Assembly: GCA_963721455.1 (NCBI GenBank) | Contig: CAVRJG010000049.1 | Location: forward strand, 1-10,199 | Length of the DNA stretch: 10,199 nt | Source of the DNA: an uncultured Methanosarcinaceae archaeon | GTDB taxonomy: Archaea; Halobacteriota; Methanosarcinia; Methanosarcinales; Methanosarcinaceae | Direction of reading: 5' to 3' | Part shown: positions 3,390 to 8,909 of the stretch, one piece after another | Layout of the letters: each line of letters starts with the position of its first letter | Numbering within the stretch: the first letter of the stretch is position 1 | Notes under the pieces: generated by a model | Database searches by the model: none | What the model saw: only the letters and a program-made list of their open reading frames with translations | What the model was told of the DNA's origin: nothing | Made by a program: the position numbers and the translations under genes

Positions 3390-3769
3390 GGAAATTTTAA
3401 GAGTGAGGCCTTCTTACTTTACCAATTTTTTGATTTTTATAGCCTGCTTGTAGGTTAATAACTGTTCATTAAAAAGTGGTAGAGTGATATGCTAGAGGTT
3501 CCTTTTATGAGTTCATTGGATACGCCTAACTAATTAATAACAATGGTTTGTTTACGATTCGGTACACAGGAAACTCTCTAACATACCAACATTATAAATT
3601 ATTATCTTTTTGTATATATTTGTTCTGTCGGTGTCTGGTTGTATCTCATCTCTTTAGAAAAGAAGTCAGAAGCTGCCAAAAGGCAGATGTGCAAGAAAAC
3701 AGATCAGAAGCCGTCAGAAAGCAGGCCTGAGAAATGCAGTAATTTTCCCCCAAAACTACTGGATTATCT

Positions 3770-4669
3770 GGCCTTGTTGCAAAATCAGTGTAAACTTTAA
3801 CTATCAGGTTTTACGACAAAACCTTGCGGTTGTAAAGACTATAAATCTGTTTTTTGCGAAAGAAATAATGGTGAGTAATTCAGATTTGTCGGGTAAGTCG
3901 GGAGGATTGCTCCTCCTTTCTCCCCTAGGAACCGTACTTGAAAGTTTCCCTTCATACGGCTCGAGTGTTTTCAAACCTTTTCTGTATCAGGCATCAGTTA
4001 TTGTGCTAACTGATTTTGTGATTCTGGATAACAGTTCACTAACATAACTGTCTGTAAGCCTCTCACCTGTCGGTGTATTTGAGTATCCCACATTCGTGAA
4101 TTTGTTTCCGTTCACACATGAAAACACCATCAGTAAGTCTGCATCCTTTCGAATTGAGGCAAAGTTTGAACCTCTATCCAATCCATTACAGATTGGCATT
4201 CGCTTTTTACTGAATCCTATGCCCTCTACGTTATCGTTAGCCTTTGCAGACGTTTCTACCTTTTTTTTTTAAAGGGACGTATAGGGTTTACCAAGTTCTA
4301 TTTCATGAATAGTTGCAGATGCCTTAGGAGCCATCTATGAGCCGAAAATCATTTGTCCATTTTCCATAATGTTCTGTAAGCCATTATGGCCTGATTTTGT
4401 ACCTTTTGGTTTAAGCGTATCAATCCAGATTTCGCTTATTCAAATTTACGACTCTTACAATGATTCACTTTACGTTCTCCATAGCACCTTTATCCTGGCA
4501 AATTGTCTAAACTGGATTTTTAGAGGTCTTCACATTGTCCCAGAAGCTTTGTACCTAAACATTACTGTAAACGCACATCCTGGTAGGATTACTCCAAATG
4601 GAAGGAGTAGCACATAGGCAATTCATGAAACAGCTTCTTGTCGCACTACAGAACTTTTGATACACTGCC
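3770..4669. mobile_element. ~141-bp IS6-like MITE interrupted by the group II intron (halves 3770-3887 and 4647-4669)
   Basis: Ends GGCCTTGTTGCAAAA and (reverse complement) GGCAGTGTATCAAAA are 11/15 inverted matches and both resemble IS6 TIRs. Removing the intron gives 141 bp, close to the 149-150 bp IS6-like MITEs nearby. No TSD. Confidence 0.6.
3888..4646 (-). ncRNA. ORF-less group II intron (self-splicing ribozyme), 759 nt
   Basis: 5' end GTGCGACAAGAAG at 4646. Canonical 34-nt domain V GAGCCGTATGAAGGGAAACTTTCAAGTACGGTTC (3962-3929; AGC triad, GAAA loop). Domain VI has a bulged A at 3894 and the 3' end ACCCGAC at 3888. The EBS1 hairpin (stem 4364-4371 / 4382-4389) displays TACAGAA, complementary to the 5' exon end TTCTGTA. 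Too short to hold an RT ORF, and no RT motifs seen. Confidence 0.95.
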
Positions 4670-4710
4670 GTAACTGCATGTAGTGCACCAATAGTTCTGT
4701 AACTTCTGAT

Positions 4711-5130
4711 TTACTCCGTACTCTTTTTCTTTATCACTGTGGAAATATTATTTTTGCAACAGAGCCGTTTTTTCTTCCCTCTAGGACTCACCATTTCTTC
4801 TCGTGGTTCTGGAATCAATTCGTTTTCCTTCAGGATTGCTACTATTTCTTCCAGGTATCTGTAGAGAGATTTCATGTCATTCCCTACCAATTTGAAATCT
4901 TGTGCCACCGTTTCTTTATACTTTCTTAGATCCTCTTCTAAGTCTCGAATCTGGATACGAAGAAGCTGCACCTCTTTTTTTCCAACTTTTTTGATGTCTG
5001 CTATTTTCTTGCTCCCGCACTTGGAACAATGGGGAAGAGAAGACTTTGTTCTGAATTCATGCCCACACTTGAGGCAAATAACCAATTTTCTTTCGAGAAT
5101 TTCATTTCTTTGACTGCTGCTTGGATTCAA
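4711..5130 (-). CDS. Hypothetical Zn-ribbon plus coiled-coil protein, ~139 aa (TTG start uncertain)
   Basis: CLKCGH-x8-CSKCGS zinc ribbon followed by a heptad-like segment (LRIQIRDLEEDLRKYKETVAQDFKLVGNDMKSLYRYLEEIV). TATA-like ATATATAAA with an upstream GAAAAA BRE-like tract lies ~30 bp upstream on the minus strand. Confidence 0.7.
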   Translation of the reverse strand: MNPSSSQRNEILERKLVICLKCGHEFRTKSSLPHCSKCGSKKIADIKKVGKKEVQLLRIQIRDLEEDLRKYKETVAQDFKLVGNDMKSLYRYLEEIVAILKENELIPEPREEMVSPRGKKKRLCCKNNISTVIKKKSTE

Positions 5131-5505: not shown

Positions 5506-5654
5506 GGTTCTGTTGCAAAAAATCTGGCTGTTTTACCAAACCAGTGAAAAACATCACAGTTGGGATATTAAGATGTCATAAGCAGATCAATAATAACACA
5601 AAAAGAAATTATTATAGCCTAAAAGGGTAGAAAAATTATTTTTGCACCAGAACC
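5506..5654. mobile_element. 149-bp IS6-like MITE (diverged relative of 2067-2216)
   Basis: TIRs GGTTCTGTTGCAAAAA / TTTTTGCACCAGAACC. The interior aligns colinearly with the reverse complement of 2067-2216. Confidence 0.85.
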
Positions 5655-5868: not shown

Positions 5869-7322
5869 ACGACTGATGTTGACGCGATCTATAAAAAGTT
5901 CAACTACGTCATAAGCAAAAAGTATTTCCTGTGAAACACTCAAAAATAAGTGGAAAATATTAGCGAGATTTGCCCGAAGCAAAGGCTCCTGTACTGGTTG
6001 CCAAAAAATTGGGCTTCTCGGATGTAGACGGTGACAGTGTGAAGGTTGCAGACATTACAGATGAGAATAACAATGTTAGTTTTATTGCCAGGATCGTTTC
6101 TGGCTTTGAAGTCAAGGAGTTTACTCGAGACGACGGGACTATTGGAAGAGTCGGAAACCTGATAGTGGGAGATGAGACCGGAAAAATCCGGATAACTCTT
6201 TGGGACAACATTGCAGACCTTATAAAAACGGGGAAAATCAAGGTAGGACAGACCATCCAGATCAGCGGACACGTTAAATTGGGCCATTCAGGGGTAGAGG
6301 TTCATGTCGGAAACAATGATAGCCTGACCGAAAGTGAGGAACAGATTGAAGTGGCCGAAAGGGTTCAGCAGATAAAAGATATTAGGGACAGCATGGGCGA
6401 CCTTAATTTCACTGGAAAAGTCTTAGAAATTTCAGACGTTCGGATTTTTCAGCGCAAAGATGGGACCGCTGGAAAAGTGGGAAACCTACTTATCGGAGAT
6501 TCCACAGGTGCAATTCGGATTATCCTTTGGGATGAAAAAACCGATATTTTAACCAGCGTCAAGTGTGGAGATGCCATAGATATTATCAACGGCTACGCCC
6601 GAGAAAGTGCCTTCAGCCACAAAGTGGAACTGCAGATCGGAAAACAAGGTATAATCCGGAAAAGCGAAAAACAGGTTGAATATGAAGAAAAGTTTCTCCC
6701 GATTGCAGATATAGTGGCTGATATGTATGATATAAATGTTTTTGGAAAAGTGCTTGACATTTCGGCAACGAGAACTTTCGAGAAAAAGAATGGGTCATCT
6801 GGAAGAGTCCGAAATTTCCTGCTGGGCGATGCCACGGGCAAGATAAGTGTTAGCCTCTGGGATGAAAAAATCGATTTATTGGAAGGAGTCAATTTTGACG
6901 AAACTGTAGAAATACTCCATGCTGATTCTCGAGAAAATGTTTTCAGTCAGCAGGTGGAACTGAATCTCGGAGCCAGAGGAGTCATAAGGAAGAGCGAAAA
7001 GACGGTGGAATACAGGGAAAAGTTCACGGATATTGCCAATATCATCCCCGGGAAAAGTTATTCCGTCCAGGGGAAAGTCTCCGAAATCGGGGACCTCCGG
7101 GAATTTGGGCGGGAAGATGAAACCGAAGGTGTGGTTGCAAATCTCGAACTCAAAGACGAAACCGGTAGCATCAAGCTGACTCTCTGGGGAGATCAGGCGT
7201 ATGTAATCGAGAATCTTGATATCGACTCTGAAATCCAGATCATTAACGCTTATGCCAAGAAGGGCTTATATGAAATAACAGAACTTAGTGTGGGAAACCG
7301 GAGCAGAGTGGTTATTCTCTGA
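5869..7322 (+). pseudogene. rpa: Replication protein A (RPA1-type, four OB folds) with a decayed 5' end; 5970-7322 remains open
   Basis: Four OB repeats (GDETGKIRITLWD, GDSTGAIRIILWD, GDATGKISVSLWD, KDETGSIKLTLWG). Upstream frame from ACG at 5869 reads TTDVDAIYKKFNYVISKKYFL*NTQK*VENISEIC, resembling the Methanosarcina RPA1 N-terminus as I recall it, but with a lost ATG, stops at 5932 and 5947 and a frameshift near 5974. Confidence 0.85.
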
Positions 7323-7901: not shown

Positions 7902-8909
7902 TCATTTTACAGGGACAATAATGTTTCTAAGGTCGGCCAACTCTTTTGCGTAACCTGCAAGCATTAGATCGGTAAAGACCTTTATCATTTCTACATTTTG
8001 ATTATTATTGCCTGATGTCAGGGCTGAAATATATGCTTCCCTAGATTCTTTTGGAATAATCAGTTGTGGATACCTTTCTTTTTTCAAAAGATAATTCAAA
8101 ACTTCACGCCCAGTTCTTCCATTACCATCAGAAAAGGGATGGATCAATTCAAACTTGTAAGTCAACAATATAGCCTGCTCGAAAGGATGCTTTTTATTTT
8201 TAATGGCATCATAATAGCTGTTAATTAGATCCTTCAAGTCTACCTCAATCATATTAGCAAGCGTAACGCTTAGATCACAACCACCTATATAGACAAGGTT
8301 GTGCCTTCTGAAAGTTCCCGGGCTCTCAAAACGCATGTCAATATTATTCATTATCAAAGAGTGCAATTTTCGAATAAACTGCAGATTTACTTTACCTTTG
8401 TACTGTTCCACATAAGCCTTTACATATTTGTAATTTTGAACCTCATTTATTTCTCTCAAAGATTTTTCTTTTGGCACAATCTCTTCATTTAAGAGATAGT
8501 GTGTTTCCTGCAATGTCAATGTGTTTCCTTCTATTGCAGTAGTGCCATGGATATACAAATTTTCGTTTTGCTGTGTATAGACTTCAAGTTCTATTTTGTT
8601 GAGTGATGAAATGTATGAATTGTGTAGGAATCGAAGCTTCTCAATTTTCTTAATTTCTGATTGACTAAGATAATCTGCTGTGTAATGAGAATAAGCCACA
8701 TCTGCTACTTTCTCGGCAGCTTTCAATTCAAGATCATAAGCATAGTCTCTAATGGCTTTTGCTAGGGCTTCAGAAGTAGGCTCAGTGGTGCCTAAATATT
8801 GTCTCACCCTGCTATTCTTTCCCTTAAATGAAATATAGCGTACCAGGAAATACTTAGGGGATCTATTCTCGGACTTTTCTGATTCTGATTCGTACCTTAA
8901 AGGTTCCAT
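7902..8909 (-). CDS. Class II Fic family protein with ~100-aa N-terminal extension, 335 aa
   Basis: Intact ORF with HPFSDGNGRTGR, the inhibitory motif TTAIEGN, and a basic N-terminal segment KYFLVRYISFKGKNSRVRQYLG. Confidence 0.92.
   Translation of the reverse strand: MEPLRYESESEKSENRSPKYFLVRYISFKGKNSRVRQYLGTTEPTSEALAKAIRDYAYDLELKAAEKVADVAYSHYTADYLSQSEIKKIEKLRFLHNSYISSLNKIELEVYTQQNENLYIHGTTAIEGNTLTLQETHYLLNEEIVPKEKSLREINEVQNYKYVKAYVEQYKGKVNLQFIRKLHSLIMNNIDMRFESPGTFRRHNLVYIGGCDLSVTLANMIEVDLKDLINSYYDAIKNKKHPFEQAILLTYKFELIHPFSDGNGRTGREVLNYLLKKERYPQLIIPKESREAYISALTSGNNNQNVEMIKVFTDLMLAGYAKELADLRNIIVPVK

Follow-up and report, generated by a model that had tools for sequence, protein, structure and literature searches.

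What is an intron without a gene of its own doing inside a piece of DNA that encodes nothing either, and what aims it there? The question is raised by positions 3770-4669 of a 10,199-nucleotide (nt) stretch of DNA (the window, to which all coordinates without a contig name refer) from an uncultured Methanosarcinaceae archaeon; the window is contig C49 of a 3.94-Mb genome assembly of 73 contigs, 98.5% complete. Our analysis leads, with good confidence, to a group II intron of mosaic origin that has lost its open reading frame (ORF), a delta-ORF intron, that uses two exon-binding sites (EBS1 and EBS2) to target nt 23 in the left repeat of an IS256-type transposon and that depends on a reverse transcriptase (RT) provided in trans.

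The intron is 759 nt long and lies on the minus strand from 4646 to 3888, starting with GTGCGACAAG (GTGCG at 4646-4642) and ending with CTTACCCGAC (CCGAC, with GAC at 3890-3888). Two lines of evidence set these boundaries: an alignment with 12 paralogues, and contigs in which 3887 adjoins 4647 exactly. Domains V and VI (DV/DVI, the catalytic hairpin and the branch-site helix) were recognized at 3964-3888 on the minus strand by Rfam model RF00029 with 61.3 bits (gathering 40, full model 1-77), and both the AGC triad and the bulged A in CUUACCC could be read off that alignment. The 5' part of domain I (D1) was recognized at 4609-4476 on the minus strand by RF02012 (group-II-D1D4-7; 60.0 bits, gathering 34, E 1.2e-10), and no further Rfam match was found in the window. 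Together with GUGYG...AY ends and the pairing of EBS1 and EBS2 with the intron-binding sites IBS1 and IBS2 in the exon, the features of a group II intron are present. No RT ORF was found within the intron: the only ORFs of at least 60 amino acids (aa) are one of 70 aa (3987-4199, minus) and one of 82 aa (4369-4617, plus), neither with a Pfam family at E<=0.01. What is left of domain IV (D4) is a remnant with an ORF-deletion scar at 3992-4102 (minus), in which some 16 codons from the beginning of the RT ORF survive, together with the surroundings of its stop; in the alignment with two RT-bearing introns, one from metagenome locus L084 and one from contig C15, the start of the ORF is kept and its body deleted. 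The element is an ORF-less derivative of an RT-encoding group II intron, and the two Rfam models above gathering and the lack of an RT ORF bear out the original prediction, made from the letters alone, that a complete ORF-less intron is present.

The 5' exon, GGCAGTGTATCAAAAGTTCTGTA (4669-4647, minus), corresponds to the outermost 23 nt of a left inverted repeat of the IS256 type and contains IBS1 at 4654-4647 and IBS2 at 4660-4656. The 3' exon (3790-3887, minus) is the remaining part of a remnant of an IS256 end, here called T, and is 88-90% identical to intron-free copies on contigs C50 and C10. Without the intron, T is a non-coding sequence of 121 bp (3790-3887 plus 4647-4669), and at the fused exon junction GTTCTGTA is followed directly by AAATCTG. 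The same 23-mer continues without interruption into AAAATCTG at C50:15576-15696 and C10:1290-1395, so that intron-free copies of the rejoined flanks, the search for which had been suggested from the start, are present in this genome. The repeat GGCAGTGTAYCRAAAGTTCTGTA and close variants of it form the ends of elements of about 1270 bp, at least eight copies of which are found in the genome. In one of these, C52:70997-72266, which has both ends, two ORFs match Transposase_mut (PF00872, Mutator-family) at 2.4e-24 and 9.6e-76, the gene being split into two frames. Because the same repeat ends these Mutator-transposase elements, the target is the left inverted repeat of an IS256 (Mutator-type) element, with the intron after nt 23; it had been correctly foreseen that EBS1 matches the outer end of a transposon-derived repeat. 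Variants of the repeat include CAAAAGTTCTGTA, CGAATTTTCTGTA and CGAATTTGCTGTA.

A second inverted repeat was not found among the repeat matches listed for T, and no target duplication was seen around it. At the far end, T can be aligned, weakly, with the right repeat of a 136-bp miniature inverted-repeat transposable element (MITE), of which it may be a decayed copy. The possibility that T is a two-ended MITE was considered and dropped, as it has one repeat only, shows no target duplication and occurs in three copies in the genome; the host is thus a three-copy, one-ended remnant and not the multicopy, two-ended MITE that had been envisaged. The 136-bp MITE family carries IS256-type repeats at both ends, and nine copies were listed, e.g. 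C38:2693-2828, C46:54424-54559 and C50:46415-46550. An 8-bp target duplication was recognized by eye in two of the nine (on C46 and C8), and target duplications of the IS256 family measure 8-9 bp. The left repeat of this MITE (ending in CRAATTTGCTGTA) is the variant that best fits EBS2 of the window intron. Among the 58 other genomes of the genus, a single match covered most of T (82%, nt 1-104), and the first 40-70 nt of T, i.e. the transposon end, had matches in 49 of the 59 genus genomes, this one included.

How the intron recognizes the repeat was studied by comparing introns with their exons. EBS1, TACAGAAC at 4378-4371 (minus), lies in the terminal loop of a hairpin which shows compensatory changes in RNAalifold, and forms eight of eight pairs with IBS1, GTTCTGTA (4654-4647). 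In 25 distinct intron/exon combinations, EBS1 paired with the last 7 nt of its own exon at a mean of 6.40/7 positions and with the exons of other introns at 3.77/7. When 13 ORF-less copies were aligned with their flanks, the EBS1 loop occurred in three forms, each complementary to its own 5' exon: TACAGAAC with GTTCTGTA in the window, CTGCGGA with TCCGCAG in ten copies, and CTGCCGA with TCGGCAG in the copies on C25 and C12 and likewise in three RT-bearing copies. The full pairing and the co-variation with the exon across relatives leave EBS1 where it had been predicted.

For EBS2, relatives were collected from 41 genomes (25 with a match), the species-genome collection and metagenomes, and their 5' exons were tabulated against two candidate segments. 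The first, AATTTGA at 4446-4440 (minus), is located between GTCGT and AAGCG in an internal loop 5' of the next hairpin. In the same number of distinct combinations (25) it paired with exon positions -14 to -8 at 5.48/7 for the own exon and 3.48/7 for other exons. Matching pairs of EBS2 and exon in relatives are ACTTTTG with CGAAAGT or CAAAAGT, ACTCATG with CATAAGT, and AAATTTG with CAAATTT or CGAATTT, as well as AAAACC with GGTTTT, ACCATG with CATGGT and AAGTGG with CCACTT. An RNAalifold consensus of 18 diverse copies (34 pairs, 14 with compensatory changes) left 4446-4440 unpaired in an internal loop (columns 32-41), with EBS1 in a terminal loop. The true EBS2 is this internal loop at 4446-4440, and in the window it forms 5 bp, TTTGA (4444-4440) with TCAAA (4660-4656).

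The second candidate, TTGATAC at 4423-4417, had originally been taken for EBS2. Its complementarity to exon GTATCAA (4663-4657) is present, yet the segment belongs to the conserved hairpin AAGCG...CGCTT at 4413-4437 (minus), the stem of which shows compensatory changes (RNAalifold columns 42-47/64-69); positions 4423-4418 form the terminal loop and C4417 lies in the stem. The loop motif, YTGAYAC, is near-constant across relatives whatever the exon, and its best pairing (best of 11 registers) was 4.68/7 with the own exon and 4.54/7 with other exons, figures that were obtained with the 7-mer one base 5' of TTGATAC (ATTGATA). By our own arithmetic, about 0.7 complementary 7-mers are expected by chance in about 15 exon positions times 759 intron positions, and the match alone is therefore not significant. 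Conservation regardless of the exon, equal pairing with own and other exons and the terminal-loop position in the fold rule this segment out: it lies in the loop of the next hairpin, not in the EBS2 loop, a location which the original prediction itself had named as speaking against its proposal.

A candidate for EBS3 is T4337 (minus), opposite the first base of the 3' exon, A3887. In this column T goes with a 3' exon starting with A in most lineages, and C goes with G in the C25/C12 and the C15/C19 introns; two exceptions make the assignment tentative. A delta-delta' pairing beside EBS1 was dropped in favour of this tentative EBS3: the window and the local families have T next to EBS1 on its 5' side, fitting a 3' exon that starts with A or G, and the G018/G005 lineage has G there though its 3' exon starts with A. 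As to a possible IIB-like structural class or chloroplast-like RT class, EBS2 is in an internal loop, the EBS3 candidate is one co-varying column with two exceptions, and HNH is found only in the RT of L084; CL1A is the commonest group II class in archaea (PMC8919778).

A DNA search of the genome with the intron gave 23 places, the window copy included. Twelve other ORF-less copies of 748-756 nt are 80-81% identical to the window intron, and three copies of about 2.14 kb match its nt 1-557 and 649-722 at 74-75%, each carrying a 497-aa ORF with RVT_N, RVT_1 and GIIM domains. The remaining places are fragments. One of them, at C50:19942-19989, is 96% identical to the first 46 nt of the window intron and follows exon GGCAGTGTACCGAAAGTTCTGTA; downstream of it, in C50:19700-19941, a unit of about 95 nt beginning with TCAATTGACGTGTTAGG is duplicated in tandem. 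In another genome, G008, GGCAGTGTTGCGAATTTGCTGTA stands directly before intron sequence of 96% identity to the window copy on two contigs (C74 and C40), which differ in their outer flanks and break off 102-127 nt into the intron. The possibility that further copies sit in unrelated targets, which would have spoken against a specific target, applies in part: the 12 other ORF-less copies have a different target, and all copies of the window D1 lineage are at the same position of the IS256 repeat.

The same junction was then searched for in the species-genome collection and in metagenomes with a pattern of the repeat joined to GTGCGACAAGA. Eight loci in six species-genome records, all Methanosarcina or Methanosarcinaceae, and 14 metagenome loci were obtained. 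In most of them the intron follows nt 24 of the repeat, with EBS1 shifted to TTACAGA. A clade of RT-encoding and ORF-less Methanosarcina introns has its natural homing site at nt 23 or 24 of the repeat, upstream of the transposase gene and in its sense, and the EBS2 sequences of the clade track the repeat variants. In two of the 22 collection loci examined (L075 and L077) a Mutator-type transposase gene on the same strand comes directly after an RT-bearing intron of 2.07-2.12 kb; because this intron directly precedes the transposase gene, the natural site lies between the left repeat and the transposase start. L075 and L077 proved to be a single locus: starting 22 nt ahead of the intron, they share 9.1 kb at 99.3% identity. 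For that reason they were discarded as evidence for transposition of an intron-carrying insertion sequence (IS). The outer 16 nt of the repeat and all leftward sequence differ between the two, and the rearrangement breaks within the transposon end. In two metagenome loci, L079 and L081, the 3' exon begins with AAATTTGCTGTA, repeating the last 12-13 nt of the 5' exon (which ends in CAAATTTGCTGTAA).

We next consider where the window intron came from. In the metagenome locus L084, a 2326-nt intron is inserted after nt 23 of GGCAGTGTGCCAAAAGTTCTGTA and encodes a 552-aa protein with RVT_N, RVT_1, GIIM and HNH domains. Over intron nt 1-420 (seven 60-nt bins) the window intron is 95-100% identical to L084 and 58-83% to C59, a local ORF-less copy. 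The order is reversed from there on, with 88-92% to L084 and 95-97% to C59 at nt 421-540, 35-58% and 82-90% at nt 541-660 across the ORF deletion, and 79-90% and 95-98% at nt 661-759. At informative sites the window agrees with L084 or with C59 in a ratio of 113:3 up to nt 420 and of 5:35 after it, which places the recombination breakpoint at 4191-4227 (minus), i.e. intron nt 420-456; since the breakpoint was picked by scanning, the Fisher value of 5e-26 is only indicative. D1 of the window intron is 97-100% identical to that of L084, and in the D1 tree the two are sisters (support 96) inside the repeat-targeted clade. In the tree of the 3' half, the distance to the local ORF-less family is about 0.04 for the window and about 0.17 for L084. 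The alignment shows an ORF-deletion junction common to the window and C59, and the deletion stretch of the window is 77-97% identical to C25, L080 and G011, consistent with a common junction. The local ORF-less family is itself mixed, with a D1 about 92% identical to that of a resident RT-bearing intron and a 3' end of 62-63% identity. Thus, the window intron is a mosaic of an L084-like D1 (nt 1-420) and a local ORF-less 3' part (about nt 456-759). The idea that its lineage had been retargeted to a MITE does not fit this picture, as the window carries a D1 97-100% identical to that of an RT+HNH intron already aimed at the same repeat position.

RT-encoding relatives, which had also been suggested as a search target, exist both as L084 and as the RT-bearing copies of the genome. 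Four intact RT ORFs are present in the assembly (on C19, twice on C15 and on C35), 65/65/65/58% identical to the L084 RT, and they align only to residues 1-490 of that protein, without the HNH part. The local ORF-less family contains near-identical copies, which means that introns of this sort have been mobilised by some resident RT. Splicing and mobility of the window intron would likewise need an RT/maturase in trans, and a resident RT would probably serve it through the common D4 remnant and domains V and VI.

Further information on the locus came from contigs of four public runs (X1, X2, X8 and X10), which were compared with 3700-4800; some of the runs left parts of this section uncovered. 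One contig each in X1 and X2 joins 3887 to 4647 and skips exactly 759 nt. The X1 contig has zero differences over 4647-4793; because these positions include sequence beyond the repeat unit, the contig comes from this very locus rather than from the paralogue on C50 or C10. A further contig of X2 spans the occupied 3' junction (3818-3962). Should X1 and X2 be DNA runs, the intron would be a young insertion at a polymorphic site; the boundaries at 3887 and 4647 are exact whether the runs are DNA or RNA. In X8 and X10, only contigs with the unspliced 5' junction were found, from a relative with 5-9 differences, and carry-over of DNA is possible in these runs.

The preference for transposon ends is not limited to the window intron. 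The other introns of the genome are each preceded by 14 nt (CCTGCTTTCGGCAG, CCCACTTTCCGCAG and variants) that form the outermost part of a second repeat family, and intron-free paralogues of their 3' exons start with the same 14 nt, with unrelated sequence before them. Such a placement at a transposon end was found for 12 of the 16 full-length introns including that of the window (11 of 15 others); C52a, C30, C13 and C8 are without such a paralogue. The 14-nt motif occurs 147 times at <=2 mismatches and forms 31 inverted pairs, 24 of them at 230-280 bp (MITE size) and several at 1.7-1.9 kb; a transposase with DUF4277 and DDE_Tnp_1 is encoded in two of these long elements. The RT-bearing introns of C19 (60612-62991) and C15a (59908-62310) lie inside MITE-size units of 237-260 bp with an inverted 14-mer downstream and DUF4277/DDE_Tnp_1 family ends, CCTRCWTTCGGCAG, and C61:12185-12444 is an intron-free copy of such a unit, 96.6% identical over the 3' exon. 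Across the genus, the junction of a second-family end with an intron start was detected in 12 of 59 genomes including this one, and a reversed control pattern gave zero matches. The notion of a non-autonomous element nested in a non-autonomous element thus holds and is more general than proposed, other introns also being placed in transposon ends. A wider reading, which we advance tentatively and hold to be somewhat short of probable, is that Methanosarcina group II introns as a whole are specialised on transposon terminal repeats (nt 23/24 of IS256-type left ends, nt 14 of DUF4277/DDE_Tnp_1 family ends and MITEs), with EBS1 and EBS2 tracking variants of these repeats, and with ORF-less introns acquiring targets when a whole D1 module is swapped onto a shared delta-ORF D2-D6 part, on which any resident RT acts in trans. 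If so, the terminal repeat, which must stay conserved and is copied with each transposition, would be a self-renewing, host-neutral homing site, and the intron, by splitting the repeat, may disable or control the transposon.

For the window intron itself, we propose the following mechanism. The target is chosen by base pairing, with eight of eight pairs between EBS1 and IBS1, 5 bp between EBS2 and IBS2 and perhaps EBS3 (T4337 with A3887). The intron is inserted after nt 23 of the left repeat of an IS256 end, which survives as the 121-bp one-ended non-coding remnant. Its D1 targeting module was exchanged between RT+HNH-type and ORF-less lineages, and a resident RT/maturase supplied in trans would splice and move the intron. 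Several observations weigh against this mechanism. The EBS2-IBS2 pairing in the window is only 5 bp, and EBS2 would fit CRAATT-type repeat variants better. Of 24 repeats in the genome with a perfect 8-nt IBS1, two are occupied (in the window and by the C50 fragment) and 22 are empty; with only one intact copy present, it is doubtful that the intron is mobile in this genome at present. The 98.5%-complete assembly lacks the cognate RT+HNH intron, and with three sequences the direction of the D1 exchange could be the opposite, L084 being the recombinant instead. Finally, X1 and X2 are labelled 'DNA?', which is a guess, so that the exact join could stem from spliced RNA rather than from an empty site; the spliced junction was not seen in the RNA runs X8 and X10.

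Some of these observations would suit a stranded fossil, an intron that arrived while an L084-type RT+HNH intron was present and is now immobile, perhaps unspliced, decaying in what is left of a dead transposon. It is favoured by the count of one intact copy plus a 48-nt fragment versus 22 empty perfect IBS1 sites, by an assembly without an HNH-bearing RT, by the weak EBS2 pairing and by a host remnant with a single repeat. Against it, D1 and its counterpart in an intact RT-encoding intron are only about 2% apart, the Rfam scores are well above threshold, and the 3' half shows 90-100% identity to a family whose near-identical genome copies must have moved in trans recently. The intron-lacking form at the same locus in public runs also points to a young insertion. 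We regard the fossil as possible but rather unlikely, and prefer a targeted delta-ORF intron served in trans.

Transposition of the host could add a second route. With its outer 23 nt intact, the repeat might still be used by a Mutator-type transposase, which would move intron-carrying IS256-type elements or MITEs besides retrohoming. Identical repeat and intron junctions with different outer flanks (G008 C74 and C40; L075, L076 and L087) are in line with such hitch-hiking, as are the two-ended 136-bp IS256-type MITEs of the genome, two of nine with an 8-bp target duplication by eye, and an intron 3' exon in G008 that has an inverted IS256-type repeat at its end, some 117 nt further downstream. 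Differing flanks are explained equally well by independent homing into different copies, however, and L075/L077 are one locus with a rearranged left side and not two transpositions. The host element in the window has a single repeat, and a target duplication around composites was looked for and none was found. Because T is one-ended and present in three copies, mobilisation of the composite by a transposase is unsupported, and we consider this route improbable.

The original interpretation, in which EBS1 and EBS2 (4423-4417) match the end of a multicopy IS6-like MITE (3770-3887 + 4647-4669) and an IS6 transposase could move the 900-bp composite, has real IS6-like termini at 3770 and 4766, a real 7-nt complementarity of TTGATAC and GTATCAA and a ~40-copy 150-bp IS6-derived MITE in the genome to its credit, but it is highly improbable, because the exon adjoining the intron is an IS256-type repeat, the intron-free paralogues match only from about 3790 without the IS6-like piece, the MITE piece at 3766-3795 lacks its outer 17 nt, and the 4423-4417 loop is exon-independent (4.68/7 vs 4.54/7) and terminal in the fold.

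The IS6-type sequences belong to a separate neighbouring element, MITE-A, a 150-bp IS6-derived MITE with ends GGTTCTGGTGCAAAAA, about 40 end pairs of which occur at about 150 bp in the genome; a relative of 860 bp shares these ends and codes for part of an IS6-type transposase (DDE_Tnp_IS240). An internal piece of MITE-A, formerly regarded as the left terminal inverted repeat, lies at 3766-3795 (plus) and, in alignment with 18 MITE-A copies, misses the outermost 17 nt. The right end lies at 4736-4766 (plus), its outer repeat, GGCTCTGTTGCAAAAA on the minus strand, ending at 4766. The repeat common to the window and the intron-free copies starts at about 3790, and the IS6-like piece is absent from these copies. 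The proposed 141-bp element with IS6-like ends is hence a mix of two unrelated elements, 4669 being part of the IS256-type repeat and 3770 of the interior of MITE-A. An RNA contig of X10 that joins 3795 to 4736 was treated as a MITE-A copy from elsewhere.

A second, degenerate IS256-type left end, U, was found at 4679-4737 (plus), with 7 substitutions in 30 positions relative to the repeat and 78-82% identity to full IS left ends. T (ending at 4669) and U (starting at 4679) are arranged back to back, 9 bp apart, like abutted transposon ends. The locus at 3770-4669 is a heap of transposon debris within an intergenic stretch. The region between the window genes is packed with MITE debris, including further MITE-A copies at 2067-2216 and 5506-5654 and single ends at 1259, 5796 and 5815. 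A 139-aa ORF (4711-5130, minus), with weak zinc-ribbon-like Pfam matches below the cut-off, lies on the strand of the intron and overlaps MITE debris. About 40 nt separate its end from the 5' exon, to which it is upstream, and the intron could be transcribed by read-through from this ORF. The other neighbours are ordinary, namely two ORFs with Fic/DOC domains (94-888 and 7902-8909, both minus) and an RPA-like protein with several OB folds (5970-7322, plus).

Altogether, the locus combines three layers of genetic parasitism in an archaeon: an intron without an enzyme uses the end repeat of a dead transposon fragment and the enzymes of other introns. Homing into terminal repeats across a genus and two transposon families suggests a general route to harmless, renewable intron sites. 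As the exon-binding sites could be fixed by natural co-variation, the target rules of the clade are readable from genomes, and a targeting domain with a history separate from that of the protein-dependent part is the natural counterpart of laboratory retargeting of group II introns. Titles and abstract starts, with subscription journals and supplements outside the search, contained no description of Methanosarcina group II introns that home into IS256-type repeats or MITEs, and none of terminal repeats serving as homing sites throughout a genus and for two transposon families, or of an exchange of D1.

Related introns of the same genus have reportedly been known since 2003, when Dai and Zimmerly are said to have described ORF-less and RT-encoding group II introns in Methanosarcina acetivorans and M. 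mazei. There, too, ORF-less introns stand beside RT-encoding relatives, and homing is site-specific into other mobile DNA, with exons without a host gene, by these reports. Nested intron homing (twintrons) is reported for M. acetivorans in Zimmerly & Semper 2015 (PMC4424553). One nested case of this kind was encountered here in a relative, locus L034 (G039:C44, ~1471-2268) of another family of the order, in which an ORF-less intron sits after nt 30 of another group II intron with the 5' exon GTGCGACAAGAAGCTACATCACAAATTGCC. The pattern reported for M. acetivorans is homing into the ORFs of related introns, whereas the sites found here are the fixed nt 23/24 of an IS256-type repeat or nt 14 of the second family.

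The comparisons with bacteria likewise follow sections of the papers cited. In Thermosynechococcus elongatus, the ORF-less introns of the TeI3/TeI4 group derive from one ORF deletion and are mobilised by the RTs of related introns, family F4 occupies a conserved site in the insertion element ISEL1 of the IS200 family, and preferential insertion into other mobile elements is given as the rationale (Mohr, Ghanem & Lambowitz 2010, PMC2882425). These introns share with the present ones the lack of an ORF and the division into families that differ in EBS/IBS. The host there is a bacterium and here an archaeon; the target there lies inside an IS200-type element and here it is the terminal inverted repeat of IS256-type or DDE_Tnp_1 elements and MITEs. 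The change of specificity in T. elongatus is described as sequence divergence, whereas here a whole D1 has been exchanged between ORF-containing and ORF-less lineages. Mobilisation in trans was assayed in T. elongatus and is only inferred here.

In Sinorhizobium meliloti, RmInt1 homes into ISRm2011-2 (IS630 family) and RmInt2 into ISRm17, and ectopic sites are used if their IBS resembles the natural one (Toro et al. 2018, PMC5894124, in the sections consulted). As in the clade described here, the natural homing site is in a multicopy insertion sequence. The resident RTs of the present genome were found to be without an HNH domain, and the RT of RmInt1 is likewise not known to have an endonuclease domain. 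According to those sections, RmInt1 encodes its own RT in a bacterial host and has its site within the insertion sequence, whereas the window intron is ORF-less, archaeal and located in a terminal repeat. Homing into insertion sequences and ORF-less families with diverged EBS are thus established; the locus is a new intron-transposon pair of a known kind, which extends, and does not change, the picture of group II introns.

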